Under the pieces are notes generated by a model. That model made no database searches and was not told the DNA's origin. It worked only from the letters and a program-made list of their open reading frames with translations. This document shows, in pieces, positions 12,637 through 64,000 of a stretch of DNA of 64,000 nt; positions within the stretch are counted from its first letter, which is position 1, and the number at the start of each line of letters is the position of its first letter. The stretch is from Patescibacteria group bacterium (GTDB lineage: Bacteria; Patescibacteriota; Patescibacteriia; UBA2591; JAQUPP01), in the NCBI GenBank assembly GCA_028716665.1, contig JAQUPP010000001.1, positions 128,467-192,466 of the forward strand, in the 5' to 3' direction. The translations under genes were made by a program, and so were the position numbers.

Positions 12637-12651
12637 TTGATTTATAAAATG

Positions 12652-27271: not shown

Positions 27272-27282
27272 GGAAAATTAAC

Positions 27283-31559: not shown

Positions 31560-31622
31560 GGCAAGCTAATAAGTTGATAAGCTTACTAAGTAAATAAGTT
31601 AATAAGTAAATAAATAACGAAG

Positions 31623-34902: not shown

Positions 34903-35135
34903 AATTTAACCCTTGTTCAGGGTTGTTTTTTATTATCAAGCGAGTGAGAGAAAAGCAATCCGCTAATGCGAGAGTGCTTTTCCGAGCAAGCGCAGATATC
35001 AAAGGTTTAATATCTTTATTATACCACTAATTTTTCGCTTGTCAAGAGGATAAGTTTATGTTAAGATTAAATGATAAAAATATAGAAAAGAGTATGAAAA
35101 GTAAAATATTTTCAAAAAAATTAACCAAAAAGATG

Positions 35136-37652
35136 GAAGATTATAATTTTGCCAAAATAGAAAAAAAGTGGCAAAAAGTTTGGGAAAAATTGAAGCTTCA
35201 TCAGGCTCAGGATTCTTCCGAAAAGCCCAAACAATATATTTTGGCGGAATTTCCTTATCCTTCCGGTGACGGTCTCCATGTGGGGCACTGCCGCCCTTAT
35301 TTAGCCATGGACGTCTTGGCCAGAAAAAGACGAATGCAAGGGCAAAACGTTCTTTACCCTATGGGTTGGGACGCTTTTGGTTTGCCGACGGAAAATTATG
35401 CCATCAAAAAAGGAATTCATCCGGCCAAAATCACAGCTCAAAATATCGCTGTTTTTAAAAAACAATTTGAATCTTTGGGAATTTCTTTTGATTGGTCTAA
35501 AGAAATTAATACCACTGATCCGAAATATTATAAATGGACGCAATGGATTTTTATCCAATTGTTTAAGAGAGGAATGGCTTATCAATCTGAAATTCCGATT
35601 AACTGGTGTCCAAAATGCAAGATCGGTTTGGCAAATGAAGAAGTGGTTCAGGGAAAATGCGAACGCTGCGGCGCTCAAACTGAGAGGCGGCAAATGAAAC
35701 AATGGATGCTTAAAATTACCGAATATGCAGATCGTTTGATTAAAGAATTGGAAACAGTTGATTATCTGGAAAAAATTAAAACTCAGCAAATCAATTGGAT
35801 TGGCCGAAGCGAAGGAACAAATTTAAAATTTTTAATTAAAGATTCTGATTCGGAAGAAGAACAATCTATTGAAGTTTTTACCACTCGCGTTGATACGATT
35901 TACGGCGTAACGGCTTTGGTAATCGCGCCCGAGCATAAAATGATTGAGACATTAAAATTAAAAATTAAAAATTTGGAAGAAGTGGAAAAATATATTAAAG
36001 CATCTCAAGAAAAATCAGACATGGAAAGAACTGATTTGGCAAAAGAAAAATCAGGCGTCCAATTAAAAGGACTTTTTGCCGTTAATCCGATTAATAAAAA
36101 ATCAGTGCCGATTTTCCTCGGCGATTATGTGATTGCCGCTTATGGCGGAGGCTCGGTTATGGTTGTGCCGGCTCATGATCAAAGAGATTTTGATTTTGCC
36201 CAAAAATACGGATTGGAAATTATTGAGGTAATCAAACCTGACCAAAATCACAAAGCCGCGGAAAAGGGCGCCAATAATGAGTTATTAGAGGCCTTTGAAT
36301 CAGAGGGAATTTTAATCAATTCGGAAGAATTTTCCAATTTAGCTTCTGCTGAAGCAAGAAAAAAAATCACTGAAAGATTGACTTTGGAAAAATCAGGCGG
36401 ACTAAAAATAAATTATAAATTGCGAGATTGGGTTTTTTCCCGTCAGCATTATTGGGGAGAACCGATTCCATTGGTTTTCTGTCAAAAATGCGCTGACAAA
36501 ATAAAAAGTAAGAAACAAGAAGCGGATTGTAAAGAATTTAATCAGGGAGAATTATTAAATCCCGGCTGGACGGCGATTGAAGAAAAAAATTTGCCGGTTG
36601 AGTTGCCTTATCTTAAAAAATATCAGCCGTCAGGAACAGGTGAATCGCCACTCAGCAAATGCGAGAATTGGATAAAAGTGAAATGTCCGCGATGCGGCGC
36701 TTGGGCGAGAAGAGAAACCGACACCATGCCGAATTGGGCCGGTTCAAATTGGTATTTTATCCGTTATCTTGATTCCAAAAATGACAAAACTTTAGCCAGT
36801 CCGGAAAAAATGAAATATTGGTTGCCGGTTGATATTTATAATGGCGGAATGGAACACACAACTTTGCATCTTCTTTATTCCCGTTATTGGTATAAATTTT
36901 TATATGACATTGGCCTCGCGGAAAGCAATGAACCTTATTTTAAGAGAAGATCACACGGAATGATTCTGGCAGAAGATGGCAGGAAAATGAGTAAAAGTTT
37001 TTCCAATGTTGTTAACCCGAATGAGATCGTCAAAAAATATGGCGCTGATACTCTGCGGCTTTATGAAATGTTTATGGGACCGTATGATCAGCCGATTGCT
37101 TGGAACACTCAAACTATTGAAGGGGTTTGGCGTTTTATAAATCGGGTATGGAATTTAGCTTCTCAAACAAATTTAAAATCAGATGTTAAAAATGACGACT
37201 TGGAGTGTTTGATGCATCAGACAATAAAAAAAGTAAGCGAGAATATTGAGAATTTTAAATTCAACACCACGGTTGCCTTTCTAATGGAATATTTGAATGT
37301 TCTGGAAAAATCTCCGAATATCTCCGGCATTAAAACTTTACTTTTATTATTATCTCCTATTACTCCCCATCTTTGTGACGAACTTTGGTCTAAAATTAAT
37401 GGTGGTAAAAAAAGTATTTTTCAAGAAAAATGGCCGGAATTTGATTCTCGATTAGTCAAAGAAAAAGATTTTATTTTAGTTGTTCAAATTAACGGTAAAA
37501 TGAGAGATTCAATTAAAACTCATATTGGCATTACTGAAGAAGAAGCAAGTCGGATTGCTCTTAATAGTCAGAAAATTCAGAAATTTTTGAACGGACAAAA
37601 AATTAAAAAAACAATTTTTATCGCCGGAAGATTAATTAATTTAGTGGTTTAA
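35136..37652 (+). CDS. leuS: Leucyl-tRNA synthetase
   Basis: The HIGH-type region is PYPSGDGLHVGHCRPY and KMSKS is present. The start was chosen at MEDYNFAKIEKKWQ. Confidence 0.9.
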   Translation, partial: EDYNFAKIEKKWQKVWEKLKLHQAQDSSEKPKQYILAEFPYPSGDGLHVGHCRPYLAMDVLARKRRMQGQNVLYPMGWDAFGLPTENYAIKKGIHPAKITAQNIAVFKKQFESLGISFDWSKEINTTDPKYYKWTQWIFIQLFKRGMAYQSEIPINWCPKCKIGLANEEVVQGKCERCGAQTERRQMKQWMLKITEYADRLIKELETVDYLEKIKTQQINWIGRSEGTNLKFLIKDSDSEEEQSIEVFTTRVDTIYGVTALVIAPEHKMIETLKLKIKNLEEVEKYIKASQEKSDMERTDLAKEKSGVQLKGLFAVNPINKKSVPIFLGDYVIAAYGGGSVMVVPAHDQRDFDFAQKYGLEIIEVIKPDQNHKAAEKGANNELLEAFESEGILINSEEFSNLASAEARKKITERLTLEKSGGLKINYKLRDWVFSRQHYWGEPIPLVFCQKCADKIKSKKQEADCKEFNQGELLNPGWTAIEEKNLPVELPYLKKYQPSGTGESPLSKCENWIKVKCPRCGAWARRETDTMPNWAGSNWYFIRYLDSKNDKTLASPEKMKYWLPVDIYNGGMEHTTLHLLYSRYWYKFLYDIGLAESNEPYFKRRSHGMILAEDGRKMSKSFSNVVNPNEIVKKYGADTLRLYEMFMGPYDQPIAWNTQTIEGVWRFINRVWNLASQTNLKSDVKNDDLECLMHQTIKKVSENIENFKFNTTVAFLMEYLNVLEKSPNISGIKTLLLLLSPITPHLCDELWSKINGGKKSIFQEKWPEFDSRLVKEKDFILVVQINGKMRDSIKTHIGITEEEASRIALNSQKIQKFLNGQKIKKTIFIAGRLINLVV

Positions 37653-37655
37653 TTA

Positions 37656-38522
37656 ATGTCGCTTAAACAAGAAACACAAGAAATTTGCAATCAATATCAA
37701 ATTCAACCTTTAAGAAGAAGAGGACAAAATTTTTTAATTAATCAGGACGCGATAAATAAATTATTGGACGCGGCTAATTTGGAAAAATCAGATTGTGTGA
37801 TAGAAATCGGCGCCGGACTTGGAATTTTAACTCAAGAAATATCGGAAAAAGTAAAAAAAGTTTTAGCCGTGGAAATTGACAAGAAATTAATTGAGGTTTT
37901 GAAAGAAAAATTGAAAGATTATAAAAATGTTGAGATTCTACAAGAAGACATTCTTCAAATTCCAAATTCTAGATTCCAAATTCTGGATTCTTACAAGGTG
38001 GTGGCGAATTTGCCTTTTAATATTACCAGCGCGGTTCTAAGAAAATTTTTAGAAAATCCCGACGCCGCAAGGGGTCGGGACTCCGACCAAGAGCGTCGGA
38101 GAAAACCAAAATCAATAACTCTAATCCTTCAAAAAGAAGTTGGAGAGCGCATTCTGGCTCGACCGCCCGAAATGAATCTTTTGGCGATCTCAATTCAATT
38201 TTACAGTCAGCCCAAAAGAATTTTTAAAATTTCAAAAGAAAATTTTTGGCCCAAACCAAAAGTTGATTCAATAATTTTACAAATTATTCCAAATTATGAG
38301 TCAAACAGAACCAATGTAGACGAAGATGTTTTTTTTAAAATTGTCAGAGCCGGTTTTTCTTCGCCGCGAAAATACCTCTTGAATAATTTGGTGAAAAGTG
38401 CTATGGTAAATAAAGAAGAAGGTGAAAATATTTTATCTCAAACAAATCTTTCTCTAAAATCCAGAGCACAGGAATTATCAATTGAAAATTGGATAAATTT
38501 AGTTAATAAAATTAAAAAATAA
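37656..38522 (+). CDS. rsmA: 16S rRNA (adenine1518/1519-N6)-dimethyltransferase
   Basis: GQNFL and the SAM motif VIEIGAGLGILT are present in a KsgA fold, with one charged insertion. Confidence 0.85.
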   Translation: MSLKQETQEICNQYQIQPLRRRGQNFLINQDAINKLLDAANLEKSDCVIEIGAGLGILTQEISEKVKKVLAVEIDKKLIEVLKEKLKDYKNVEILQEDILQIPNSRFQILDSYKVVANLPFNITSAVLRKFLENPDAARGRDSDQERRRKPKSITLILQKEVGERILARPPEMNLLAISIQFYSQPKRIFKISKENFWPKPKVDSIILQIIPNYESNRTNVDEDVFFKIVRAGFSSPRKYLLNNLVKSAMVNKEEGENILSQTNLSLKSRAQELSIENWINLVNKIKK

Positions 38523-39287: not shown

Positions 39288-42200
39288 TTGGCTTTTAAAT
39301 TTTTTATGAAAGCTAAAAAATTATTAAATTTTAGAATTTTAACCGGGGCGGTTTTATTGGTAATGTTTTTATCGATAATGACTCCGGTTTTATTTTATCC
39401 AAAACAAGCTCAAGCCCAAATGGTAGTTCATGATCCGCTTAAAGTGATAGTGGATAAGGTTTGGGAATTTTTAAAATTAGCTTGGAAAAATGGCGCGGGA
39501 ATCGCTTACAAAAACGCGATTAACACTTATACCAGTCAAATAGCCACGCAAACTGCCGAATGGGTGGCCTCGGGAGGAAAAGGACAAACCCCAATGTTTA
39601 TCGCCGATCCGGACTATTGGGTTAAGGTGGGAGATAATATGTTGGGAGAGTTTATTGACGCGGCCGCAGGACCGAAAGGCTTTTTCGGACAAAGCTTGTG
39701 CGATCCGATTGATCCGACTCTCCGTTTGAACATTTTAATTTCTTTTGATCCGCTTTATCGTCAAAAAACTTGGACACAAGAAAACAAATGTTCTTTCACT
39801 AAAATAAGACAAAGAATCAAAGAGGCAAGTCAAAAAAATTTAATTGAATTTTCCGTGGATTTGAAAGAAGGACCAGTTGGCAGATATCAGTCCAGTTTTA
39901 AATCCATTTTTGAAGCGGACAGTAAATTAAATGAATGGCAGACCGCTGATTGGCCGGGCGGGGATCACAAAACAAATCTGAAAATGATTGCTGATAAAAT
40001 TACAAGCATTCAAAAAGATTTTTCTCAAACCGTTGAGGATTTAAAAGCCAATAAAAACAATACTTCATTAATTCAAAAAGAAAATATTCAAGCTGATTTT
40101 CGAAACAGAATCAATAATAATGTTTGGGGACCGGACGAACCTCCGGCGACACAATATGGACAATATTTGAAATTTTGGCAAAAAAATACGTCAGCCTGCG
40201 CGGCCAAAAATAAAGAAAATTTTTGTCAGGATTTGAATTGTTATAATATCTGCAGCAAAACTGATTGTTTGGGTAATTTTACCAATTGTTTGGCTTATAC
40301 CAATAGAGCCAATCTTTATGTTAAACAATTAATAGATTGGACCAACCAATTGACAGGCATGATTAATAAAACTGATTTTACCGCTTTGACAACCAAAGAA
40401 GAGGTTACCTTGGAAGATATCGGCAGAATGTATTCGGAAGATAATGATTTGAGAATTACTTTAAGTCTCCAATCCAGTTTGATGGAAAAACAAGCCAATG
40501 CGGTATCTAAATCTCAATATTTTCAATCTCTCCAGGGCAGGCTTAATGATGTGACAACAAAAATTTCCGGTTTGACTAAAACTCCGTCATCATTGGTTGA
40601 TACGGCGGCTCGGGAGGCGGTAAAAAATGGCACAGCCAGTCCGATGCAATATACCGGTGTGGCGGTGGCCGACGCAATTGGCATATTTACCAATACTTTA
40701 ATTGATAAACTTTTAAAACAAATTTTTGAGAAAGGCTATAATGTTAATGTTTCACCGGAGGCGGTTAGAACACAGCCATTTTTAAGCGGAGAAGGAGGGT
40801 TGATTACTTTGGGTTCAAACGCGGGTGGATCGCTTTTTTCCGACTTGACAGTGGCTTCTTTGAAAAAAGGCGGGGAAATATCAATTTATGACGAATACTC
40901 AGTTTGCCCACAAGATCCGAAATACGCTTTGCCGAGCAATTGCGTAATGGATTCGGGAATGGTTAGAGCACTTGAAGACAATTTGACTTTAAAACAAGCC
41001 ATGGATAAAAATTTAATTCATTCGGATTGGTTGGTCAGCGGACGAAGTAAAAAAGACGCAGCTACTGATTATTTGGGCCGCTACAGTTTAACCAATATTA
41101 AAAAATTGCGCGCGATCAGAGTTTTTCCATTAGGTTTGGAAATTGCGGCGCAAAAAATTTATGACGGTAAATTGGGTGATGCTCAATTTACTTTAAAAGA
41201 TATTGTTGACGGATTTGATAAAGTCAGTTCAGACGGTGATTGTCGGATTTATATTGATCCTACTAAAACTCCGAAAGAAGGAAGTATGGAAATTCCATGT
41301 CCGGTTTGGGACAATGATCATTGTTATACTAATGTAGGGAAAACAAAAGAATCATTTTCCGCTTCACCTTTTTGTCATTTGGTTGATCCGAATTGGGTTT
41401 TAAAAGCGCCGTCTTTTCAATGTGAAACCATTGCTTATTCGGCTATTCCTTTACCCGGTTCCAACCAACGTCAGGAAACCTGTATTGATATGAAAGATTG
41501 TATTCACGAAGACGCGAATGGGAAATGCGATACTTGGGGTTATTGCACCAGAGAAAAAAATATTTGGCGGGCAGGCGGAAATTCTTGCGACAGCCAATTT
41601 AATACTTGTCAAACTTATACTAAAACCAGCGATAAAAAAAGTTCTTCTTATTTGGCCAATACTTTAAATTTTGCTAATTGCAGCGTCAATGATGTGGGTT
41701 GTAAATGGTATTGTTCCGATTATCAAAAAAGTTTTGGGGCCAATAAGGCAGATATTTGGGCTTGCGAAAAACCGGGAGTATCATTGACTTGCATAGACAG
41801 AGATGAAAGCGGCCAATGTACAACTTATGGGAAAAATGGTACTGAGCAAAATCCTACCCAAAACGCCATTTTCTTTAATCGCAATGTTGAAAAATGCGAC
41901 AAAAATTCAGAGGGCTGCCATGAATATATTCGGACTGCTACTGATTCAAAAATTTATTTAAAAACCGCGCCAGAATGGATGGATTGTGAAGGTGACAGCC
42001 CGAGTTTGGAATGTTCTAATTTCGCCACCAGTTGTGAAAAAGAAGATGTCGGTTGCGGATTATATGCGCCAATCAATAATGATCCGACTATCCCGGGAAT
42101 TGTTTCTGAAGGAAATCGTTGTTCGGAAAAATGTGTTGGAACGAATTATTTCAAAGAAATGAAGACAAATTTTGAAACCAATCAGCCCGACGTGCTGCTA

Positions 42201-45200
42201 ATTCCTTCTTTAGCCAAATCTTGTTCTGCGCCGGGTTGCGAAGAATTTACCAATTTAGATGAAGTGGCAAAGGGTGGTGAAGGAATACAATATTATTCTT
42301 ATATTCGAACTTGCCAAAAACCGGATACGCAAACTTGCGGTTATTATTACACTTGGGTTGGTTCAGATACCAATGGTTATCAATTAAAAAAATATTATTT
42401 AACAGCTGGGGCAGGAGGACCGGCAGAAATTGACAGCCCGTCTGCTCAATTCGGAATATGTGATAAAGACCAAATTTTTACTAATCCTCATTGCAAAGAA
42501 TTTTATGACGCGGATGGAAAAGTAAGTTATCGTATTTACGAAAATACTATTACTTGCTCTGATGATTGTCATCCTTTAAGGATAACTATTCCAACTGGTT
42601 TTGACTCAACTAAATGTTCAAATAGCGGCGGGACATGGGATAATGGAAATTGTATTTATCAAACCATTCCTACTGAAAGCGTTTCTTGTAGCAAGGCCAA
42701 TATCGGCTGCCGAGAATATAAAGGCAACGCCGCCAATAATGTTCGCCAAATTTTAAAAAGTGATTTTGAAGACGCGAAGGACCAAGGTTGGAATGGGACG
42801 CCTGTTAATGAATCAGGAGTTTATACGGGTCATTCATTGCAGAGCCCATCATTTATGATTTCTCACTCAGTTTCTTTAACGAGCGAAAAATCTTATATAC
42901 TTTCTTTCTGGGCCAGGGGCAATGGTGACTACTACTCATTTTTTACAAAAGATAAAGAAACTGTTTGGTTTAATAATAAAGATAAAACAACTATTTTTTC
43001 CGATGATTGGCAAGAAATTAAATTGGGGCCAATTTATTCGAACAATCAATTATCTTCTGGTGATTGGGAACTAAATATTAGAGGTCCTAATGGATTTTAT
43101 GTTGACGATATTATTTTAAAAGAAGTTAAAGACGATTTGAATTTAATCAAAGATTCTTGGAAAACAAAAATGCCTGCTGGATGCACTGTCTCGGGTTGCC
43201 AGGCATATAAAGATCAAAACAACAAACTTCAATATCTGACTTCATTTGCTCGTCTTTGTGATGAAAAATCAGTCGGCTGCGAAGCTTTGATTGACACCAA
43301 AAATTCCACTTCGCCGTTTGCTGAAACATTTAAAAATGGAACAACGGTTCCGGACGACAGTCCGATTTATTTGATCAATGATTCCAAAAAATCCTGTCAA
43401 GAAACAAACAAGGGTTGTCAAAGATTCGGTTTGCCGACGCTTTCTTCCGAAGATACGGTAGTTGGTTGGTCTGATTTATATTTAAGAAATAATCCTGATA
43501 ATTATTCTGCCAAGATTCTTTGCGACAGCGCGAATACCGGTTGCGAAGAATATAAAATCAACGGTTCCGGCAGTTCGGTTTATTTCAAAGATCCGGGCGA
43601 AAATCTTTGCGAATGGCGCGAAAAAATAATGGTCGGAGGAGAAAATAAAACAGGTTGGTTCAAAAAGGGAACCAGCCAGCCTTGCTATTACAACACAGAC
43701 AACACTCCATATCAAATCAATGGTCTTTATAGTATTAAAACAAGTGCTGAACCTGATTATAAAAATATAGCCGGAGTTTGTCCTCAAAAACAAACCGGTT
43801 GCACGCAATTTACTGATTTTGGAGCCACGGTTGGCAATAATTTAATTAATGGCGGAGATTTTGAAACCGGAAATTTGGGTCAATGGACACCTGCCTATGG
43901 TTCAGTAGCAAAACCTGATACAATTCAGCTTTTAAGCGGATTTGGTCAACCTGCTAATTTTTTAAGAATTGAAAGCGACGGTTCAAGTCCTCGTTTTGGC
44001 GTAGCTCAATACCCGGAATTTAATGATTTGCCAAGTGGCGCCAGTTTTAATTTTTCGGCTAAAATTAAATTAGATAATAATCTTACTGATGACGTAAAAG
44101 CGACTGTTTATTTGGACTTATTTTATCGGGGCAATAAAGAATTTGACAATCAAGGTTGTATTGTAAAAATTGACGACAAGTCTGTTCCCCGAGATTGTTC
44201 AGATTCGGAAAGCGCAATTGTTCGGACGTGTGCCGACCAAGGGAAAGATAACTGTACTGGTTCTAATGATTTAGAAAAATCTTATGTACAATGTTTAAAA
44301 GATGTTAATTTGGGAAATGTAAATGGTTGGTGTTTTAATTGGGTTTATGGCTATCAGCCGGCTGTCGGTTGGGGAGGAATTGATACAACCAATAAAGATT
44401 GGATAACTTTGAATAAAACAATTGTTGCCGGCGGAAAAGATAATCCTAAAAATTTGCCTTTATATAAAATAATGGTATCCCCTGTTTTAGTCAAAGGAAA
44501 TGGGACTGCGGGAGTTATTGATATCACAAATAGTAGTGTATATGCTGATTTTGATGATATCAGTTTGAAACAAATTCAAAATTATTATTATCTTGATGAC
44601 GACAAGTTGGATCAATCTTCCTGTCAAGGCAATGTTTCACAAAAACAAGATTGCATTCTCTTACTTGATTCAAGTTTAAAAAATGCCGATGGTCAAGTTT
44701 TGGCCACTTATAATACTTTTGCCACTTACAAAAAATCGGAAGCAACTAATCCAAAATACGGATTGGTTTCGCCGGTTGATTGTACAAAAGGAGTACCACA
44801 AACTGGCAAAAGTTGTACAGATGCTGAATATACAAATACAGATTATTGTAAATATTGTTCGTCTTACGGACAAATTAAAAATGACGCGAATACAATTCTT
44901 AAAGTCCGGCAAGATAGAACTTGCGGCGAATGGCTGACTTGCACCAGCTCGCGTTCAGAATGGGATAAAACTAGCGGTTCTTTTAAAGATATTTGTGAAG
45001 CGGTTGGCCGTTGCGACAAATTGATCGGCACTGGAAATGCGAATCAATGCGGTCATCTGATTTGGGAAAATGACCCGAAAGTTTTAGCCGATAATATATA
45101 TCAAAACCGAGATGTTTCTTGGAGCGGGATGGATTACGCCGGCCACTCAATTTACAATATGTACCCGATTGAAAGATTATGGGCCAAGGAATATAACGGT

Positions 45201-47510
45201 GTTTACAGATTAAGTTATCTTGATACAAACGGGAGCGTTTATGGAGTCGATGGAATTAAACTTAAATCGTCGATACAACCAGATAGTGAGATTAATTCAA
45301 CGCAATTGACAAAATCTACTATTGGGAAAACCTGTCGAGCTTATCCGGAAAAAGATTCGCCATTTAAGAGTGACGTGGAAAAATATTATTTTTCCGATGT
45401 TAATGTTTGCAATGATACGAATAATACCGGCGAAAATAAAGATTGCCAATGCAGTTACACTAAAGATGATTATGGCGGAACAACAAAATATTATAATACG
45501 GCGCCGACAACAACGGGAATTTGTGTGAGCAGCAGTGATGGCAAGGAAACAGGAGATACAACTCAGAATATTTGCGTGAGCACTCAAAATGATCATACTC
45601 CGGGAATTTGGAAAACTTTAACCAAACAGACAAACGCGCTTGGTCTGAGAGGTTTTTGTTTGGAACCGGATCCATCAAAACCTGCTGATTTAAATGCTTG
45701 CATTACCTGGTGGCCCGGCGCGGCAATCGGCGACCCGGATATTTATAATCAATTCACTTCTGCCGGCTATCAAGCCGCGAATGAGCGACAATGGTATTGT
45801 GCTAAAAAAATTGAAGTTCCAGTAATAGATTTACAATCAGAGGGTAATTTAACAATGACTTCTCATAACGATTGTAAATCTGGAGAAACATGGAAATGCG
45901 CTTGGCAGAAAGGTAATATATGTAATGATGTGGAATGGTGGCCACATAATTGGAGATCGGATAGTTGTTCAACAAATATAACAGGTATTTATTCTGTTAG
46001 TGAGCTTGATAATTGTAATTTAGATTGTCCCGCTCAAGCGATATTTTCTTTGGGTAATAGCTCATCAAATAGAGTCAAAAATTTAAAGGCGGACATGGTT
46101 GAAAGTATTAATATTAATGTTTGTTCTTGTACCAGCGCTAATGGTGCTGGCGATACGAATACCTGTTCAAGCGGTTCCTGTACAGATATTAGTGGGAATG
46201 ATTCAGGAAGTCTTTGGGGCTGGGATCCTCTGGTATTATCTTTAAATGATTCTAATTCTTGGACATCATCTTACGGTTCGGGGAATGGCGTAAAGATAAT
46301 TGCTAACTGGAAAGAAGATCAAACTTTTGATTCTTTGGTATTAAAAGCAGCAGATGAAAAGAATTTTGGATACTTTAAAATAAATTCAATCACTTTAAAA
46401 ATTAAAAATGATTGTGAACAAGTTGTTAAAATTGCGGATACTGACAGAATGGCCACCGCTTACACTAATCGGGTAAATAATATTAAAAATTATTTTAATG
46501 ATTCTGTGGATGGTAAAACAGAGTTTGAAAATTGTACTCCTTGGGGCGCGGTTAAAAATTGGGATACATCAACAGTTTATATTACAGAATCATCAAATAC
46601 TTGTGAAATAAATAAGGGTGCTTTATATGATTATACGGGCAACATAAAAGACTCTGTTTTTGCTAAAAAACTTTTTGCTCGATCTTTTGATGTCAAAACA
46701 TTTTCTTTGTCTGATTTTCAATATCATACGGGAAGCTTATATACTGTTTTGGATTCTACTAATACTCCTCAAGTGGCGGCCCCAACCTGTGATGAATTAA
46801 CGAATGTTTGTAAAATGGATTCTGAGGGGGCTTCAAATCATATTACTATCGGTAATGTCTATAAAGATGGAGAGAACATTACTCGTGTTCAGTCATATTT
46901 GGCAATTTTGAAATTTTATGCTTGGGCAAATGAAAATCAAATGCCGATCAGGGAAATTTCCATTGATTGGGGAGATAGAGCTGGCGAAGTTAATCCTTAT
47001 TCGGTAATAGCTAAAAATCACAAACAGGCTTGTTGTGAAGGAAGTGGCAGTTGTGCAAATCTCGGAGTTGCATGTAAAGAAGGAATCAATGCCGGCAAAG
47101 CTTGCAATAAAGATTCAGATTGTTTAAAAGAATATGCTTTATGCACAAATAAAAAATGTCAGGCCGGGGTTAATCAAAATCAGGCTTGTGATAAACCAGA
47201 AGATTGTCCGATTTATAGCGAATGTCAAAATATGGTTAATTTAAATTTCGGCAATATTCCTGATGCCTGCACAAATAATTATTTCCAATTTACTCATATT
47301 TATCAATGCGCCGGCGAAGGTTCACCGGGTTGGAATGCCTTTAAGTGTTCCAATACTTGTTGTTTTAAACCTCGCGTTTATGTTCAAGATAATTGGGGTT
47401 GGTGTAATAATGGAAAGGAGAATGTATTAAAATCATCTAATGGTAAATGTAATGGATTGGGGATAGCAGGCACACCATTCGGAGGCTTAATAATTATTAG
47501 ACCGCAATAA
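39288..47510 (+). CDS. Giant (2,740 aa) Cys-rich secreted/anchored surface protein with CBM4/9-like (galactose-binding-like) domains
   Basis: It has a signal/TM N-terminus and more than 100 Cys. Two regions match the CBM pattern (DFEDA..GWNG...; NGGDFETGNLGQWT...). Confidence 0.7.
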   Translation: MAFKFFMKAKKLLNFRILTGAVLLVMFLSIMTPVLFYPKQAQAQMVVHDPLKVIVDKVWEFLKLAWKNGAGIAYKNAINTYTSQIATQTAEWVASGGKGQTPMFIADPDYWVKVGDNMLGEFIDAAAGPKGFFGQSLCDPIDPTLRLNILISFDPLYRQKTWTQENKCSFTKIRQRIKEASQKNLIEFSVDLKEGPVGRYQSSFKSIFEADSKLNEWQTADWPGGDHKTNLKMIADKITSIQKDFSQTVEDLKANKNNTSLIQKENIQADFRNRINNNVWGPDEPPATQYGQYLKFWQKNTSACAAKNKENFCQDLNCYNICSKTDCLGNFTNCLAYTNRANLYVKQLIDWTNQLTGMINKTDFTALTTKEEVTLEDIGRMYSEDNDLRITLSLQSSLMEKQANAVSKSQYFQSLQGRLNDVTTKISGLTKTPSSLVDTAAREAVKNGTASPMQYTGVAVADAIGIFTNTLIDKLLKQIFEKGYNVNVSPEAVRTQPFLSGEGGLITLGSNAGGSLFSDLTVASLKKGGEISIYDEYSVCPQDPKYALPSNCVMDSGMVRALEDNLTLKQAMDKNLIHSDWLVSGRSKKDAATDYLGRYSLTNIKKLRAIRVFPLGLEIAAQKIYDGKLGDAQFTLKDIVDGFDKVSSDGDCRIYIDPTKTPKEGSMEIPCPVWDNDHCYTNVGKTKESFSASPFCHLVDPNWVLKAPSFQCETIAYSAIPLPGSNQRQETCIDMKDCIHEDANGKCDTWGYCTREKNIWRAGGNSCDSQFNTCQTYTKTSDKKSSSYLANTLNFANCSVNDVGCKWYCSDYQKSFGANKADIWACEKPGVSLTCIDRDESGQCTTYGKNGTEQNPTQNAIFFNRNVEKCDKNSEGCHEYIRTATDSKIYLKTAPEWMDCEGDSPSLECSNFATSCEKEDVGCGLYAPINNDPTIPGIVSEGNRCSEKCVGTNYFKEMKTNFETNQPDVLLIPSLAKSCSAPGCEEFTNLDEVAKGGEGIQYYSYIRTCQKPDTQTCGYYYTWVGSDTNGYQLKKYYLTAGAGGPAEIDSPSAQFGICDKDQIFTNPHCKEFYDADGKVSYRIYENTITCSDDCHPLRITIPTGFDSTKCSNSGGTWDNGNCIYQTIPTESVSCSKANIGCREYKGNAANNVRQILKSDFEDAKDQGWNGTPVNESGVYTGHSLQSPSFMISHSVSLTSEKSYILSFWARGNGDYYSFFTKDKETVWFNNKDKTTIFSDDWQEIKLGPIYSNNQLSSGDWELNIRGPNGFYVDDIILKEVKDDLNLIKDSWKTKMPAGCTVSGCQAYKDQNNKLQYLTSFARLCDEKSVGCEALIDTKNSTSPFAETFKNGTTVPDDSPIYLINDSKKSCQETNKGCQRFGLPTLSSEDTVVGWSDLYLRNNPDNYSAKILCDSANTGCEEYKINGSGSSVYFKDPGENLCEWREKIMVGGENKTGWFKKGTSQPCYYNTDNTPYQINGLYSIKTSAEPDYKNIAGVCPQKQTGCTQFTDFGATVGNNLINGGDFETGNLGQWTPAYGSVAKPDTIQLLSGFGQPANFLRIESDGSSPRFGVAQYPEFNDLPSGASFNFSAKIKLDNNLTDDVKATVYLDLFYRGNKEFDNQGCIVKIDDKSVPRDCSDSESAIVRTCADQGKDNCTGSNDLEKSYVQCLKDVNLGNVNGWCFNWVYGYQPAVGWGGIDTTNKDWITLNKTIVAGGKDNPKNLPLYKIMVSPVLVKGNGTAGVIDITNSSVYADFDDISLKQIQNYYYLDDDKLDQSSCQGNVSQKQDCILLLDSSLKNADGQVLATYNTFATYKKSEATNPKYGLVSPVDCTKGVPQTGKSCTDAEYTNTDYCKYCSSYGQIKNDANTILKVRQDRTCGEWLTCTSSRSEWDKTSGSFKDICEAVGRCDKLIGTGNANQCGHLIWENDPKVLADNIYQNRDVSWSGMDYAGHSIYNMYPIERLWAKEYNGVYRLSYLDTNGSVYGVDGIKLKSSIQPDSEINSTQLTKSTIGKTCRAYPEKDSPFKSDVEKYYFSDVNVCNDTNNTGENKDCQCSYTKDDYGGTTKYYNTAPTTTGICVSSSDGKETGDTTQNICVSTQNDHTPGIWKTLTKQTNALGLRGFCLEPDPSKPADLNACITWWPGAAIGDPDIYNQFTSAGYQAANERQWYCAKKIEVPVIDLQSEGNLTMTSHNDCKSGETWKCAWQKGNICNDVEWWPHNWRSDSCSTNITGIYSVSELDNCNLDCPAQAIFSLGNSSSNRVKNLKADMVESININVCSCTSANGAGDTNTCSSGSCTDISGNDSGSLWGWDPLVLSLNDSNSWTSSYGSGNGVKIIANWKEDQTFDSLVLKAADEKNFGYFKINSITLKIKNDCEQVVKIADTDRMATAYTNRVNNIKNYFNDSVDGKTEFENCTPWGAVKNWDTSTVYITESSNTCEINKGALYDYTGNIKDSVFAKKLFARSFDVKTFSLSDFQYHTGSLYTVLDSTNTPQVAAPTCDELTNVCKMDSEGASNHITIGNVYKDGENITRVQSYLAILKFYAWANENQMPIREISIDWGDRAGEVNPYSVIAKNHKQACCEGSGSCANLGVACKEGINAGKACNKDSDCLKEYALCTNKKCQAGVNQNQACDKPEDCPIYSECQNMVNLNFGNIPDACTNNYFQFTHIYQCAGEGSPGWNAFKCSNTCCFKPRVYVQDNWGWCNNGKENVLKSSNGKCNGLGIAGTPFGGLIIIRPQ

Positions 47511-47600
47511 TTATAGCTTATTAGCTTGTAGCTTCTTGGCTTTTTAGAAAATAAAAAAGAGTAGGTCTATTACAGACCTACTCGGCGAGAAATAAATTTC

Positions 47601-48485: not shown

Positions 48486-48582
48486 TTGTCCCCCTTTGAG
48501 TTAAACGTTATTGTCTAACTGTATAATACTCTATCATATTTTTTGCTTTTTGTCAAGATGTTATAATAAGTTAATTTTTATG

Positions 48583-51465
<2,883 letters not shown>

Positions 51466-54260: not shown

Positions 54261-54331
54261 TAGCTTTTTAGCTTGTAGCTTATTAGCTTTTTAGGGCTAA
54301 GAAGCTAATTCCTAATATCCTAATTTTAAAT

Positions 54332-58221: not shown

Positions 58222-59493
58222 ATGACAATTAAAAATAAAAAAACTTATTTACTTATTTACTTATCAGCTTATTTGCTTATCAGTTTATTCGCGGCTGATT
58301 TTGCTTTGGCTCAGATTAAATTTCAACCTCAAGTAAGTCTTCCCGGCTTTATGAATGTCGGCGACATAAAAAATATTAGCGGCACGACTTTGGGTGAATT
58401 TATTATTGCTTTTTATAAATGGTCTATTGGCACAATCGCTTTTTTGGCTGTGGTGATGATTATGATTGCCGGTTTTCGCTGGATGACTGCGGCTGGCAGC
58501 GCGCCTCAAATTACACAAGCCAAAGATCGGATTAATTCCGCTTTGATCGGTTTGATTTTGGCCATTGGCGCTTACAGTTTATTGAGTTTTCTGAATCCCG
58601 CTTTAGTCAGATTCAAAAATTTGAATATTACAAATATTAATAATATAGAATTGGGGATAACTTGGTGCAGGGATATTTATAATAATAGTTTAATGAATCA
58701 TTTACCTGAAGAAAATGTGGTTGAATACGGTCAAGTTAATATTGATAAAACTATTAATGGAAAAACTCAATTAATTGGACAAGTTTTGGACAAACCATGT
58801 GCTCAAAGATTCCAGGTTGTTCAAGAAGAAAATGGTGTTTGGAAAGCGGCCGGTAATTCTTGTTGGACAGATTTTTGCGAAGGGGATAACAGTTGCTATA
58901 GACAGTCATCGGATAATAGTTTTATTTGCACAGATCCTATAAAATTATGTGAAGGAAAGCCGAGTACCAGTGATGCGACTTGCGCGCTTTATTTGAAAGA
59001 CGTAGGATGGGGCACTTTATATGACAAAAGTCGGCATGTTTGCGCTTATGAACCAAAGGGTTTAAATAATTGTATTCTCGATACTTTATTCAACTGTCCA
59101 AATCCCAAAGAGGGTGATAAAAAATATGAGCGGGTCAATTGCTCTGCTTCTAAAGACGCAGCAAACAATAGCGCGTGTTGGCTAAAAGGCGATGAAAAAC
59201 CTCAAGTTACTGAAGGCAAAAGATGCGCCGATGTCGATAAAACCCCTCAACCAACCTGGAGTAAAGATGGAATTTGTTGTCATGAAGTAGGAACGCTTTT
59301 TAACGACTCAAAAAATTATGTAATGTGTTACACTATTCAACCCAAGCAACTCAGATGTGAAAAATATTCATGGGACGCGCTGCCAGGGAAAAAAAGGGAA
59401 ATTATATTCTCAAGTTCTTGCGCAGAGGGTGAACAACCAGGGGTTAATATAAGCGGCGATTGTAACACAGCTTGGACTTGGTTTCGTCCTTAA
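58222..59493 (+). CDS. Secreted protein with a VirB2/TrbC-like pilin hairpin fused to a ~280-aa Cys-rich C-terminal domain
   Basis: A signal peptide is followed by YKWSIGTIAFLAVVMIMIAGFRWMTAAGS...AKDRINSALIGLILAIGAYSLL (compare VirB2 ...AVLGIVAIGISWMFGRAS...) and then at least 24 Cys. Confidence 0.45.
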   Translation: MTIKNKKTYLLIYLSAYLLISLFAADFALAQIKFQPQVSLPGFMNVGDIKNISGTTLGEFIIAFYKWSIGTIAFLAVVMIMIAGFRWMTAAGSAPQITQAKDRINSALIGLILAIGAYSLLSFLNPALVRFKNLNITNINNIELGITWCRDIYNNSLMNHLPEENVVEYGQVNIDKTINGKTQLIGQVLDKPCAQRFQVVQEENGVWKAAGNSCWTDFCEGDNSCYRQSSDNSFICTDPIKLCEGKPSTSDATCALYLKDVGWGTLYDKSRHVCAYEPKGLNNCILDTLFNCPNPKEGDKKYERVNCSASKDAANNSACWLKGDEKPQVTEGKRCADVDKTPQPTWSKDGICCHEVGTLFNDSKNYVMCYTIQPKQLRCEKYSWDALPGKKREIIFSSSCAEGEQPGVNISGDCNTAWTWFRP

Positions 59494-59509: not shown

Positions 59510-60808
59510 TTGAAATTTTTTGTTAATATGAATAAAAAAGCCTTAATTATATTTTTAGTGGCAGTGATAATTTTAGCCGGATTGGTTTGGTTTGTCTTTT
59601 TTCGTCAAAAACCGGTTGTTGTTCAGCCAACTCCTGAGCAACCGATTACGGAGCAGCCGGCTCGATTGCCGGTAACTAGAAGTCAGTGGGAAGGGATGAC
59701 CATTGAAGAACGGGGACGCTTAGGTCTGCCTATTTCGGAATGGCCGGCAGAAGAAACAATAACTCCCGAAACTCCCGTGGCGCCGGAAAAAATAACTCCG
59801 GAAATTGATGAAGTGGCTTCCGGCAGCAGAACATGGATTAATACTATTTCTGATGACCAGGTTCAAAATGCAACTTTAGCCGGTGACGGACAGAGTAATA
59901 TTTATTACGATAAAACAGGCGGGCATTTTTATAAAATAGATAATTTGGGCAATAAAGAATTATTGACTGATCAAGTTTTTTATAATGTGGATAATATCAA
60001 TTGGGCCCCGACCAAAGACAGAGCGATTTTGGAATACCCGGACGGATTTAAAGTGATGTATGATTTTGATCAAAAAAAACAATATACTTTGCCAAAAAAT
60101 TGGGAAAATTTTTCTTGGGATTCGTCAGGTTCTCATTTTGCGTTTGAATCAACCAGTCAATATCCGGAAAATAATTGGTTGGCTACCAGTCGGGCCGACG
60201 GCAGTGAAGCAAAACCGATTGAACATATCGGAAACAATGCTGACAAAGTAACGGTTTCTTGGTCGCCGAATAATCAAGTTGTCGCTTTCTCGGCTACCGG
60301 AGATCCGCGAGGCGCTTGGGAACAGGAAATATTATTAATCGGCCAAAATGGCGAAAATTTTAAATCTTTGGTTATTGACGGCCGCGGTTTTGAATCGAAA
60401 TGGTCTCCAGTCGGCGACAAAATTGTTTACAGTGTTTACAGTTCTGATTCAAACTATCAACCCAAACTTTATATAGTGGATGCTCAAGGAGATGCAATCG
60501 GTAGCGGTAAAATAGATTTAAATTTGGCTACATGGGCCAATAAATGTTCATTTAATAATAATGGCAATACTCTTTATTGCGCTGTTCCTAAAAGTTTACC
60601 TGAAGGATCAGGATTAATACCTGATTTAGCCGCTAATACTCGTGATGATTTTTATAAGATAGATGTGGCCACCGGTCAAATTTCATTCTTGGCTGAAGGA
60701 GCAATGGGCGGATATAATGTAGGTGATATTTATTTATCAAGTGATGACAGTATGCTGTATTTTATTGACAAAGACACCAGTCATTTAAGATCAATCAGGC
60801 TAAAATAA
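59510..60808 (+). CDS. Membrane-anchored PD40/TolB-like beta-propeller protein with a Pro-rich linker
   Basis: An N-terminal TM segment and a PxxP linker are followed by repeated W(S/A)P...(A/V)(F/Y)S blades. Confidence 0.5.
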   Translation: MKFFVNMNKKALIIFLVAVIILAGLVWFVFFRQKPVVVQPTPEQPITEQPARLPVTRSQWEGMTIEERGRLGLPISEWPAEETITPETPVAPEKITPEIDEVASGSRTWINTISDDQVQNATLAGDGQSNIYYDKTGGHFYKIDNLGNKELLTDQVFYNVDNINWAPTKDRAILEYPDGFKVMYDFDQKKQYTLPKNWENFSWDSSGSHFAFESTSQYPENNWLATSRADGSEAKPIEHIGNNADKVTVSWSPNNQVVAFSATGDPRGAWEQEILLIGQNGENFKSLVIDGRGFESKWSPVGDKIVYSVYSSDSNYQPKLYIVDAQGDAIGSGKIDLNLATWANKCSFNNNGNTLYCAVPKSLPEGSGLIPDLAANTRDDFYKIDVATGQISFLAEGAMGGYNVGDIYLSSDDSMLYFIDKDTSHLRSIRLK

Positions 60809-60847
60809 GTAAATAGGCAAATAAGCTAACTAAGTAAATAAGTTGAA

Positions 60848-62032
60848 ATGAAAATTCAAAATTCCAAATTCAAAATTCCAAATTCTTTACTTATAATCGC
60901 CTTAATGGCGTTTTTTTGGTTTTGGGCCGGTCAGCAAGTTTCGGCTGCCTGTATCCCGCTTGGCGGAACAGATCAGCGCCCGGAAGGTTGTAATGGCAAT
61001 CCTTGTTGTCCCGGTTCTAATTGCCAAGCCACGCCACTTTTTGGAGATTCTCAAGGTTCGAACACAATGTTTCAAATTAATTGTTGGAATATTAGTGAAG
61101 GCGTAATGCCTATTACCGGTATAGAAACTGACACTCAAGAATCAAAATCAATAATTGCTCCGCAATTGCAAGTTCAAATTCCAGGTTTTCAAGGATTTAC
61201 CACTGATGAAAGTAAAATCGTGACTGAGCAAAATGGCAAAAAAAGTTATTCCTTTCCATGGATTGGCGAATATCTTATAGCTCTTTATAAATGGGCGATC
61301 AGATTAATCGCCGCTTTGGCCGTGGTGATGATTATGTGGGCCGGGGTGGAATGGATGATTGCCGGAGGCAATAGCAGTCGGATTTCCGATGCCAAAGGAA
61401 GAATCACTGGTGCTTTATTCGGGCTGGTTTTATTATTAGGCATTAATACTTTTTTAAATTTTATAAATCCGCAGTTAACTTTTTTCAAGCCGATTCATCT
61501 GGGAGAAATTGCAAAAATTGAGCTTGATGCAGAAGAAATAGATTATCCGATTGTTTTGGAAGGACAGACAGACTCGGATTGGTGGAGATTTAACCCGGGA
61601 ATTACCAAACAAATACCTGATATGTCGCCCCAATTAGCCAGTTTTACAGATTGTCTTGGTAAAAAAATCGTTGGTTCGGATAATAAACCAAAAGCGGTAA
61701 TTACCAGTATTTCCGATGATGCAGGCGTGGAAAGATGTAGAAATGCCTGGCAAAAAAAGGATTGTCGAGAAGAAAATGATCCTAATTGTTATTCTTGTCA
61801 TCATACTAAAAATTCTTGTCATTATGGAGGCAAGGAGTGTCCAGCTCAATCTTATGCCATAGATATTGGTATAACCACCAGTCCTTCGCCAACGGAAATA
61901 ATCAACGCGATTAAAGAGTGTAACCCGAACGCTTATATTTGTTATACTCCTTATAATAACTGCCCGGGTCATACAAATCATATTCATACCAGTATTGGTT
62001 GGGACTCCGGTTGTAAATGCGATAAAAAATAA
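60848..62032 (+). CDS. Paralogous secreted protein: Cys-rich N-terminal region, VirB2/TrbC-like hairpin, Cys-rich C-terminal domain
   Basis: YKWAIRLIAALAVVMIMWAGVEWMIAGGNSSRISDAKGRITGALFGLVLLLG aligns with the 58222 protein. Confidence 0.45.
   Translation: MKIQNSKFKIPNSLLIIALMAFFWFWAGQQVSAACIPLGGTDQRPEGCNGNPCCPGSNCQATPLFGDSQGSNTMFQINCWNISEGVMPITGIETDTQESKSIIAPQLQVQIPGFQGFTTDESKIVTEQNGKKSYSFPWIGEYLIALYKWAIRLIAALAVVMIMWAGVEWMIAGGNSSRISDAKGRITGALFGLVLLLGINTFLNFINPQLTFFKPIHLGEIAKIELDAEEIDYPIVLEGQTDSDWWRFNPGITKQIPDMSPQLASFTDCLGKKIVGSDNKPKAVITSISDDAGVERCRNAWQKKDCREENDPNCYSCHHTKNSCHYGGKECPAQSYAIDIGITTSPSPTEIINAIKECNPNAYICYTPYNNCPGHTNHIHTSIGWDSGCKCDKK
60852..60886 (+). repeat. Heptanucleotide tract (AAATTCA/AAATTCC)x4 plus AAATTCT, starting 2 nt after the start codon of the pilin-like gene
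   Basis: Five tandem 7-nt units are seen directly. Confidence 0.7.
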
Positions 62033-62040
62033 ATCAATTT

Positions 62041-63429
62041 ATGCCTCAAAATAAAACAATATATGCCTGTTCAAAATGCGGATCTCAATTTCCAAAATGG
62101 TTGGGACAATGTTCGGAATGCGGCGCATGGGGAACAATTTCTGAAACTGTTCAAAATAATTCTCCGCGCAAAAATTTTACAACAACAAAAGCCGGTGAAG
62201 TTATTGAATTCAGCGCCATTAAAAGCCAAAATTTTTCAAGATTTAAAACAGGCATTGAAGAATTGGACAGAGTTTTGGGAGGTGGATTGGTTCCGGGTTC
62301 GCTGATTCTTTTGGGCGGCGCGCCGGGCGTTGGAAAGAGCACTTTAGTATTACAAATAGTAAGGCAAATTTCTAATCTGCCAGTTAATGAACCAAATTCC
62401 AAATTCCAAATTCCAAATTCTGTATTATATATCAGTGGCGAAGAATCAGCCGAGCAAGTAAAATTGCGATTGGAAAGAATCGGCGTTTCGGAAAATAATT
62501 TAAAATTTTTCGGCGATACGGATGTTGATGTCATTTGCGCCACAATTGAAAAACATAAGCCTAAAATAGCGGTGGTTGACTCAATCCAGACGGTCTCTTC
62601 TTCCGGGGTTGATTCGGAAGCGGGCAGCGTTAATCAAATTCGCGCTTCAACCGCCAAATTAATGGAAGTCGGCAAGAAAACACAAACAACAATTTTTATT
62701 GTCGGTCATATTACCAAACAAGGCTCAGTGGCCGGTCCTAAAACTTTGGAGCATTTGGTTGATGTTGTCTTATATCTTGAAGGCGATTCGCATCATCATT
62801 TTCGTTTTTTAAGATCTTATAAAAATCGTTTCGGTTCAACTAATGAAGTCGGAGTTTTTGAAATGAAAAAACAAGGATTGGTGGAAATAAAAAATCCTTC
62901 CGAAGTTTTTTTGGCCAATCGGAATTCTCAAGTCATCAGCGGCTCGGTAATCGCGGCCATTATGGAAGGCGTTCGTCCTTTTTTGATAGAAGTTCAGGCA
63001 CTTGTTTCAAGAACTAATTTTGGCTATCCGCAAAGAAAAAGCACGGGTTTTGACTTTAACCGTTTACAGCTTTTGGTCGCGGTTTTAACCAAACGATGCG
63101 GCCTTAAATTGGAAAATCAGGATATTCATATCAATATTGTCGGCGGATTGGAAATTTCCGAACCGGCGGCAGATTTGGCCGTGGCTATGGCCATTGCTTC
63201 CGCTTTTTACAACAAACCGATTGACGCTAAAACTTTATTTTTCGGCGAAGTCGGTCTGGCCGGCGAATTGAGAAATGTTTCTTGGCCGGAAAAAAGAATT
63301 AAAGAAGCGGAAAAATTGGGTTTTGAAAAAATTGTGATGTCTAAAGAAAAATTTTTGGATTTTCAGCCGAAAATAAAAATTATTCAGGAAGAAAATTTGA
63401 GCCAGGCGATAAAAACAGTATTGGGATAG
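62041..63429 (+). CDS. radA: DNA repair protein RadA/Sms
   Basis: It has an N-terminal zinc ribbon CSKCGSQFPKWLGQCSECGAWG, Walker A GGAPGVGKST and a Lon-like C-terminus. A ~12-aa insertion is encoded by the heptamer tract. Confidence 0.85.
   Translation: MPQNKTIYACSKCGSQFPKWLGQCSECGAWGTISETVQNNSPRKNFTTTKAGEVIEFSAIKSQNFSRFKTGIEELDRVLGGGLVPGSLILLGGAPGVGKSTLVLQIVRQISNLPVNEPNSKFQIPNSVLYISGEESAEQVKLRLERIGVSENNLKFFGDTDVDVICATIEKHKPKIAVVDSIQTVSSSGVDSEAGSVNQIRASTAKLMEVGKKTQTTIFIVGHITKQGSVAGPKTLEHLVDVVLYLEGDSHHHFRFLRSYKNRFGSTNEVGVFEMKKQGLVEIKNPSEVFLANRNSQVISGSVIAAIMEGVRPFLIEVQALVSRTNFGYPQRKSTGFDFNRLQLLVAVLTKRCGLKLENQDIHINIVGGLEISEPAADLAVAMAIASAFYNKPIDAKTLFFGEVGLAGELRNVSWPEKRIKEAEKLGFEKIVMSKEKFLDFQPKIKIIQEENLSQAIKTVLG
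62404..62431 (+). repeat. Heptanucleotide tract (AAATTCC)x3 plus AAATTCT inside radA
   Basis: It is near-identical to 60866-60886. Confidence 0.7.
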
Positions 63430-63456
63430 AAAAATTCAATAATTTATCAATAAAAA

Positions 63457-63486
63457 ATAGCCTTGACAAAAGGGCTATTTTTTGAT
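63457..63486 (+). terminator. Intrinsic terminator (atagcc-ttgacaaaag-ggctat followed by T6). It overlaps a TTGACA -35-like box for the next gene.
   Basis: A hairpin is followed by a T-run after the radA stop. Confidence 0.5.
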
Positions 63487-63553
63487 AGTATAATTGTATG
63501 GTTAAGATGAATATAATAAAGGTTAAAAATTTAATTAATTAAATTAAAAAAAT

Positions 63554-64000
63554 ATGTCTACCGAAACAGGTGGTTATGTGCCACCAAAAGAAAATATAGA
63601 AGATACTACTGAAGTAACAGGCCAAGAAGCTGCAGAAAAAATAAAGGAAGTTGTTGAAAAAACCGAAAAAGACAAGGAGATTGAAGAATTGATTGCTAAT
63701 GCCCAAAACATTGAAGATTTAATTAATAATGTTTTACCTAAAATCGACGCAATGGAGGGTCTTGAACCGACCCCAGCCGACGAACTTAAGATAATTATTG
63801 ATGATATAAGGAAAACAGGCGATTTTACTTCTATGCCAAGCGATCATGGTCTACGTGAAAAAGTTTTTAAATTATTATCACCAGAACTTCCTGAAAAAGG
63901 GGGAGGAAAATCTTTTCTTGATAGAGAATTACTTTATAAAATAAAATTGAATCAAAGCGAACTTCCAGAGGGCGAAAAGGGAGATCTCACTAAAACATTG
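63554..64000 (+). CDS. 3'-truncated hypothetical acidic protein (runs off the window end)
   Basis: The frame is open from the ATG at 63554 to the end of the window. Confidence 0.35.
   Translation, partial: MSTETGGYVPPKENIEDTTEVTGQEAAEKIKEVVEKTEKDKEIEELIANAQNIEDLINNVLPKIDAMEGLEPTPADELKIIIDDIRKTGDFTSMPSDHGLREKVFKLLSPELPEKGGGKSFLDRELLYKIKLNQSELPEGEKGDLTKTL

Follow-up and report, generated by a model that had tools for sequence, protein, structure and literature searches.

The DNA considered here is a window of 64,000 nt (the whole stretch that was analysed, positions 128,467 to 192,466 of contig JAQUPP010000001.1 in the Patescibacteria group bacterium assembly GCA_028716665.1). It is AT-rich, with a G+C content of 33-40%, and contains the DNA-repair gene radA, whose coding sequence is interrupted in frame by a tandem repeat of a 7-nt unit. 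The genes and features at the locus are the following:

62041-63429, plus strand: radA/sms, encoding 462 aa with a C4 zinc ribbon, a RecA-like ATPase, the KNRFG motif and a Lon/ChlI-like C-terminal domain.
62392-62420, plus strand: perfect heptanucleotide microsatellite, (CCAAATT)x4 followed by C (Tandem Repeats Finder: period 7, 4.1 copies, 100% match).
62377-62415, plus strand: insertion of 39 nt, or 13 codons (LPVNEPNSKFQIP), relative to the four closest RadA alleles.
62302-62445, plus strand: mosaic patch of about 140 nt and high divergence around the insertion.
60848-62032, plus strand: gene for a pilin-like protein of the type IV secretion system (T4SS) kind, directly upstream of radA.
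60849-60886, plus strand: sister tract (AAAATTC/CAAATTC)x5 at the 5' end of the pilin gene (MKIQNSKFKIPNS), hypervariable among close relatives.

The host gene has all the features by which a RadA/Sms protein is recognized: the Pfam domains PF18073, PF13481, PF06745 and PF13541 (the ATPase domain being of the AAA_25/KaiC type), the Walker A motif GAPGVGKST, the motif YKNRFGST, and a full-length match to the solved Streptococcus pneumoniae RadA structure 5LKM (E = 9e-132). In the alignment to 5LKM the insert falls where that structure has a gap of 12 residues, after the helix following Walker A and before the strand (V)LYVSGEES, which in this protein reads VLYISGEES. An AlphaFold model, read only for secondary structure and disorder near the loop since it derives from a shallow alignment and is of low confidence (predicted local distance difference test, pLDDT, 61; predicted template modelling score, pTM, 0.45), places a helix at residues 99-111, coil at 112-127 (pLDDT below 50 at 113-125) and a strand at 128-131. 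An insertion of about 10 residues after the Walker A helix had been proposed in an earlier note on this DNA; the site was correct and the size too small, as the insert measures 13 aa against the closest relatives and 12 aa against 5LKM.

Read in the alternative phase, the tract is (AAATTCC)x3 plus AAATTCT at 62394-62421 and contributes the peptide PNSKFQIPNS. It is in frame as assembled and lies within a genuine radA gene, as first described, at a site ten bases upstream of the one first given: positions 62404-62431 actually read TTCCAAATTCCAAATTCTGTATTATATA. The near-identity to 60866-60886 in the pilin gene likewise holds for 62401-62421 (20 of 21 bases) and not for 62411-62431 (4 of 21). 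The pilin tract shares the unit family and the codon phase of the radA tract; because a 7-nt repeat yields the same cyclic 7-aa peptide in any frame (here KFQIPNS), a frame shared among copies is uninformative, and only the strand is informative.

The radA tract is far beyond chance. It is the sole perfect tract of at least three units with a period of 5-12 in the 64 kb, and third-order Markov simulations (n = 100) produced no such tract for periods 7-12, with means of 0.31 for period 5 and 0.03 for period 6. When four units at 85% or more periodic identity were required across periods 6-14, only the radA tract and 60849-60886 passed, both with period 7. A 20-mer of the tract found seven matches in the window at up to three mismatches, against 0.25 expected. 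Two kinds of signal were considered for the tract and ruled out. A Chi-like or uptake-sequence-like motif does not fit the counts of the single heptamers, which show neither excess nor strand skew (AAATTCC, 19 on the plus and 25 on the minus strand; CCAAATT, 28 and 29), and a hairpin or cruciform does not fit the predicted DNA fold, which has no secondary structure (z = +0.9).

The insertion is lineage-specific, in agreement with what had been predicted from the window. Four relatives with 94-95% protein identity (L001, assembly GCA_028717225.1, and L123-L125 from JGI metagenomes), which differ from one another at synonymous sites, lack it and read ...QIVHSLSN-DSVLYV... at this point. The exact placement of the gap is ambiguous, since the relatives' AATGATTCGG looks like one repeat unit, and the insert-less allele at the junction (TCCAATGATTCGGTT) is already akin to one degenerate unit. 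Within the species the tract is unchanged in three conspecific assemblies: the independent contig L002 (GCA_028690995.1) is 100% identical to the window over 62268-64000, tract included, and the 462-aa RadA is recorded entire under two further accessions, P0269 among them. Around the insert, the allele of the window departs from its relatives over a short patch. With the insert excluded, nucleotide divergence from each relative is 24-27% in 62302-62445 and 6-7% in the rest of radA (binomial P of about 1e-9, for a region picked post hoc), with 12-14 synonymous and 6 non-synonymous codon differences, whereas the relatives compared among themselves show no divergence spike there. The patch is probably a short recombination import from a more distant radA allele and not the product of local mutagenesis: with synonymous divergence saturated over some 140 nt, the insert-bearing allele was most likely brought in by homologous recombination rather than built in place.

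The loop that holds the insert varies widely in length. The segment from GKST to SGEE spans 16-61 aa with a mode of 16-17 among the best 120 homologs, all of the Patescibacteria type, and it is expanded in about a fifth of RadA representatives (50% identity clusters); this spread indicates a broadly permissive loop. Expanded loops among the homologs often carry 7-aa-periodic peptides:

P0018 (59% identity): ...NPKQIPNSKFQISNSVLYV
P0019: LDSRFQIPGS
P0022: NSKFEIRNS
P0003: KLQVTSYKLQV
P0034 and related sequences: CQVSSVNCQMSNV
P0044: NQKLKIEN

The loop DNA of six of these lineages was examined for its period. In all six the best period is 7, with units that differ from one lineage to another, which together with the window makes at least seven Patescibacteria lineages:

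Window: (TTCCAAA)x4
L127: (AAATCCG)x4 plus (TTCCAAA)x3
L129: (TTYCAGA)x4
L130: (TTCGAAA)x3
L136: about ten units of AGTGTCA/AATGTCA
L137: (ACAAGTT)x5
L138: (TTGAAAA)x3

Orthologs with the same peptide on non-repetitive DNA would, according to the earlier note, have refuted its proposals for the tract; the opposite was observed, the IPNSKFQISNS of P0018 being encoded by repetitive DNA. At the protein level, 7-aa windows were compared with the translations of 7-mers repeated three times (11,256 peptides) and scored over 12-aa windows. Scores of at least 10/12 were reached by 6 of 120 RadA loops and by 1 of 3000 control windows outside the loop. An intein footprint was ruled out as the origin of the segment: RadA inteins insert in the P-loop and not in the tract-bearing loop, and those of P0292, P0320, P0332 and P0374, from other phyla, lie between GK and ST (GVGK/C...VHN/STLL, about 150-500 aa), some 25 residues upstream of it. 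A second A-rich, 7-nt-periodic stretch was seen in four lineages in the radA linker between zinc ribbon and ATPase (codons about 35-48):

L129, 3110-3143
L130, 1300-1336
L136, 1610-1638
L138, 1604-1636

Tracts of the same kind occur in other genes. The proteome of the window contains three clear heptamer-coded segments (KsgA, the first 13 codons of the pilin, and RadA), all of one unit family, and a shorter array lies in leuS (35058-37652):

37953-37994, plus strand: degenerate six-unit heptamer tract in ksgA/rsmA (LQIPNSRFQILDSY; heptamer-coded segment LQIPNSRFQILD), between the DIL and NLPF motifs.
35954-35973, plus strand: (AAAATTA)x2.9 in leuS, encoding ETLKLKIKNL, with LKLKIKN just after the APEH motif.

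Compared at the DNA level with a relative of 85% identity, the ksgA tract is of equal length and differs by substitutions only. Among 120 KsgA homologs, 30 score at least 9/12 in the peptide test and 17 at least 10/12; nearly all high-scoring segments lie at one site, 16 residues before the NLPY motif, and have a constant length of six units, although the units themselves vary (AAAATTC, CAGATTC, CAGTTAC, ATTTTCA, TCCAATA, TTACAAC, CTGGAAA, AGTTACA and others). Period 7 is clearly enriched at the RadA and KsgA loops, and periods 4 and 5 are not: the 99% level of the null was exceeded for period 7 by 8 of 120 RadA and 27 of 109 KsgA loops, for period 4 by two and one, for period 5 by none in either protein, and for period 8 by 1 of 120 and 7 of 109. 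In a metagenome-assembled genome labelled Gammaproteobacteria (L049), LeuRS has QNSKFKIQN, from (AAAATTC)n, at the site of the leuS array of the window. Judged from these sequences, LeuRS is a third homologous site with 7-nt coding repeats, and one in an essential gene.

A scan for the generic tract AAATTCMAAATTCMAAATTC with one genome per species returned at least 120 loci in many phyla, mostly in Nostocales and Bacteroidota; among the matches listed, none had radA, ksgA or the pilin gene at the tract. The tract lay inside a long open stretch at 52 of the 120 loci listed, and in-frame copies were confirmed in other genomes in GluRS, a UvrA-like ABC ATPase, the LeuRS editing domain, a PrmC-like methyltransferase, PGK and MurG. 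Several genomes had two or more matches among those listed (for instance Calditrichaeota VGIO01, Alistipes JAZOVT01, Nostoc JBALDA01 and Symploca JAAHFP01), which suggests a genome-specific enrichment of the (AAATTCM)n family. A 21-nt repeat at 12582-12624 in the window, in the N-terminal coding part of the minus-strand open reading frame (ORF) 11839-12672, has no 7-nt period and was rejected as a member.

The pilin-like gene upstream of radA accompanies it in L001, L127, L129, L136, L137 and L138 (59-95% RadA identity), and in L001 the pair adjoins PrgI-, TraC- and VirB4-like genes; this gene order suggests that RadA has a conserved connection with a pilus or an uptake apparatus. Variability of the pilin 5' tract among close relatives is far above that of the radA tract. 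In L123 (1233-1316) the pilin 5' end consists of (AAATTCC)x3, a 21-nt insert holding the hairpin CCTGCC-TTATC-GGCAGG, and two more units (MKIPNSKF-PALSAGR-QIPNS); the tract of L001 is degenerate and 9 nt shorter, and in L124 and L125 the N-terminus is a different one, preceded by heptamers of the (TAAATCC) type. Repeats of period 8/16 and of the type TAAGTAAATAAGC were also seen in the window, at 27278-27343, 31563-31617 and 60803-60842 on the plus strand and at 47514-47544, 54261-54294 and 58243-58289 in reverse orientation. Two of the six were compared with the ORFs, and both lie at pilin-like genes: 60803-60842 lies in the spacer just before the pilin gene start at 60848, and 58243-58289 lies within the first codons of the pilin-like ORF 58222-59493. 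These repeats are possibly a shared promoter or regulatory signal.

Taken together, the radA tract is best read as a self-perpetuating coding microsatellite in a permissive, disordered surface loop, which in this genome arrived together with a short recombined patch and which selection holds in frame, an interpretation that we consider reasonably probable. Replication slippage or unequal exchange among the 7-nt units would create and re-homogenise the array, and selection would remove lengths that are not a multiple of three, so that only in-frame alleles would reach consensus genomes; that units of 7 nt favour slippage is already known for many bacteria. Once present, the array would perpetuate itself while its unit sequence drifts, which would explain why homologous loops of different Patescibacteria carry different 7-nt units. 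The insert-bearing allele of this genome would have been brought in from a more distant radA allele by homologous recombination. We infer all three of the following steps, namely that slippage generates the array, that recombination supplied this allele and that the tract is neutral, and several considerations weigh against them. Since a change by one 7-nt unit breaks the frame, an array could be built or re-homogenised only by steps of 21 nt or by way of null alleles. Were the arrays simply neutral, units of 3, 6 or 9 nt would be expected to prevail in coding loops, but the dominant period is 7. A 7-nt periodicity at homologous sites over deep divergence, with changing units and a constant length in KsgA, looks maintained and not accidental. 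The recombination step leans on a region picked post hoc and has no donor identified. Finally, with about three public assemblies of the species, the lack of variants is weak evidence.

The first alternative, raised in the earlier note, is a contingency locus, in which the heptamer tract would be selected because slipped-strand mispairing would turn radA OFF and ON stochastically and thereby adjust recombination or transformation in a lineage dependent on DNA uptake. The tract is indeed frameshift-prone, as that note had it: the unit is not a multiple of three, and loss or gain of one or two units is predicted to leave a RadA stub of 137-154 aa that lacks everything past Walker A, while a change of three units keeps the frame. 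In favour of such a locus, radA is dispensable in model bacteria, 7-nt repeats of different units occur at the same radA site in seven lineages, which suggests that the repeat state itself is kept, and the upstream pilin tract of the same family is hypervariable and lies in the n-region of the signal peptide, as do the Neisseria opa repeats, recalling the simple sequence repeats (SSRs) in signal-peptide regions of phase-variable surface genes. Like the characterised SSR contingency loci (Neisseria opa CTCTT, the tetranucleotide loci of Haemophilus influenzae, the 7-bp hmw promoter repeats), the radA tract is a non-triplet repeat in which slippage shifts the frame. It differs from them in that it is short, lies in a cytoplasmic DNA-repair gene and shows no ON/OFF polymorphism in the data examined.

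Length is the first difficulty for switching. Known contingency tracts with units of four to seven nucleotides are as a rule much longer, and at about four units the radA tract falls below the length for high slippage, a threshold set by what is established for characterised loci. All three conspecific assemblies have the tract in identical form, all homologs examined are in frame, and none of the six products predicted for changes of -3 to +3 units was present in a collection of 15 billion proteins. Loop length did not vary within 90% identity clusters in ten clusters of other lineages, where loop peptides were invariant and truncated members broke downstream of the loop and not inside it. 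These comparisons concern consensus assemblies from very few samples and are of low power, and they are compatible with an OFF subpopulation at low frequency. The same tract family is moreover in frame in essential genes (GluRS, LeuRS, PGK, MurG) in which an OFF state would be lethal, so such tracts exist without being switches. The proposal of stochastic ON/OFF switching is thus not borne out: the radA tract is a frameshift hazard and not demonstrably a regulated or selected switch, phase variation of radA is possible and unsupported, and we regard a contingency locus as an unlikely explanation, if one with some weight.

Neither the self-perpetuating microsatellite, nor a contingency switch, nor templated copying explains the specificity for period 7 together with the concerted turnover of units at fixed sites. 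On a more speculative view, to which we give only limited credence, Patescibacteria would actively preserve 7-nt microsatellites, frameshift-prone as these are, at set loops of housekeeping proteins (the RadA Walker-A loop, the KsgA motif III-IV loop and the LeuRS editing-domain site), evolving in concert such that units change while period and site stay. The radA tract would then be either a member of a set of conserved stochastic switches or the product of a 7-nt-specific templated 'writer', controlling recombination and ribosome maturation in minimal, DNA-scavenging cells.

A templated micro-insertion would have copied the tract into radA from another genomic copy, for example the pilin 5' tract 1.5 kb upstream, through template switching or ectopic gene conversion, or as a small mobile element that spreads between genes. 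The use of one unit family by the ksgA, pilin and radA segments of the window, where other lineages use others, is consistent with copying, as are the identity of the radA and pilin tracts at 20 of 21 bases in equal codon phase, the pure (AAATTCC)x3 in the L123 pilin tract, and the existence of multicopy, genome-specific heptamer families (PMC2700814, PMC4692102, PMC4679880). The ungapped similarity between radA and pilin, however, goes no further than the repeat borders, the tract forms no hairpin and has no terminal structure, and the heptamer taken singly shows neither excess nor strand skew. The patch on either side consists of diverged radA coding sequence, which makes the donor another radA allele, and distant RadA orthologs already hold a tract at the same site. 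A copy of the pilin start region was tried specifically: the gapped resemblance (AGTT..AATGAA) looked suggestive, but it was rejected because the identity without gaps extends no further than the repeat. Beyond the repeat, the radA and pilin copies share neither sequence nor a structure such as terminal inverted repeats or a palindrome, as copies resembling miniature inverted-repeat transposable elements, repetitive extragenic palindromic sequences or Rickettsia palindromic elements would. Of the mobile micro-insertion suggested in the earlier note, therefore, the spread of one unit family over three genes stands, while the similarity is confined to the repeat and lacks secondary structure; we consider templated insertion improbable.

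Selection of the inserted PNSKFQIPNS as a structural or interaction motif of RadA is less plausible still. Like peptides (IPNSKFQISNS, LDSRFQIPGS, NSKFEIRNS) do occur in distant RadA and KsgA proteins, but other lineages have unrelated peptides at the site (CQVSSVN, KLQVTSY, KLKIENF) and share only the 7-nt period of the DNA, the insert is absent from the closest relatives and from model RadA proteins, and the segment is predicted to be disordered in a low-confidence model. An assembly or sequencing artefact, conceivable because the window comes from a metagenome-assembled genome and assembly can go wrong at repeats, can practically be dismissed: the tract is identical in the independent contig L002 and two further protein records, its 29 nt are fewer than the length of a read, its frame is kept and its flanks are collinear, and comparable tracts are present in independent data from NCBI, ENA, JGI and Logan.

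Heptanucleotide repeats as such are well known. According to the portion of PMC4679880 that cites Mrazek et al. 2007, they are the most abundant class of long SSR in most bacterial genomes, the proposed cause being that about 7 nt is the stretch contacting the polymerase, which favours slippage, and coding regions usually hold units in multiples of three. Geobacter metallireducens has 49 copies of an element of four GGGACCG units, between and within genes (PMC2700814), the GGGNATC repeats of Xanthomonas and Nostoc prefer four units and occur less often than expected in coding DNA (PMC4692102), and Beggiatoaceae have TAACTGA repeats (PMC4679880). The arrays of the window resemble these families, and the cyanobacterial short tandemly repeated repetitive (STRR) sequences, in the 7-nt unit, in tandem direct copies beyond chance, in the number of units per array (about 4-5) and in the presence of several arrays of one unit family in a genome (ksgA, the pilin 5' end and radA within 64 kb). 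The known families, in contrast, are mainly intergenic and scarcer than expected in genes, whereas all arrays of this unit family in the window are in frame inside ORFs, and here homologous loops of RadA, KsgA and LeuRS are occupied in many lineages by lineage-specific units. With Rickettsia palindromic elements, too, there is a likeness, namely short in-frame insertions in loops of housekeeping proteins with a patchy distribution among relatives; those elements are structured palindromes of 100-150 bp, and the radA tract is an unstructured tandem repeat. In the literature no account was found of heptanucleotide repeats in Patescibacteria or the Candidate Phyla Radiation, nor of such arrays at homologous loops of housekeeping proteins, nor of phase-variable radA. 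The radA tract thus belongs to a known kind of repeat, and what appears to be new is its in-frame position at homologous loops of housekeeping proteins, its recurrence across Patescibacteria, and the turnover of units with period and site retained.

Some further features of the window were recorded. Within ksgA (37656-38522), positions 38050-38105 hold a GC-rich in-frame insert of 39 nt (AARGRDSDQERRR) with two tandem hairpins and CCGAC...GTCGG arms, which occurs once in the window, has a DNA fold of -17.9 kcal/mol (z = -6.7), and is present in P0151 (78% identity) and absent from P0150 (85%) and P0152 (75%). By analogy it has the look of a small palindromic element that was inserted in frame as the Rickettsia elements are; this double hairpin would be a closer analogue of those than the radA tract is. 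Downstream of ksgA, 39288-47510 is a giant cysteine-rich ORF of 2740 aa with an N-terminal signal-like segment. In the ORF 48511-51465 (984 aa), a (GCC)n / GCCGCCGCCGCCACC repeat at 50547-50697, richer in G+C than the genome, codes for a long stretch of polyproline.

In-frame heptamers at the same loops, with units particular to each lineage, offer a comparative system in which to ask why the period is 7, and whether polymerase slippage or selection sets it. They account for a type of 'lineage-specific insertion' met with in Candidate Phyla Radiation (Patescibacteria) proteins. The radA tract is a concrete candidate for DNA repair under phase variation, in organisms that are believed to rely on DNA uptake; should it instead prove stable, the lesson is one for annotation, in that loop inserts with a 7-aa period are to be read as products of microsatellites and not as functional motifs.

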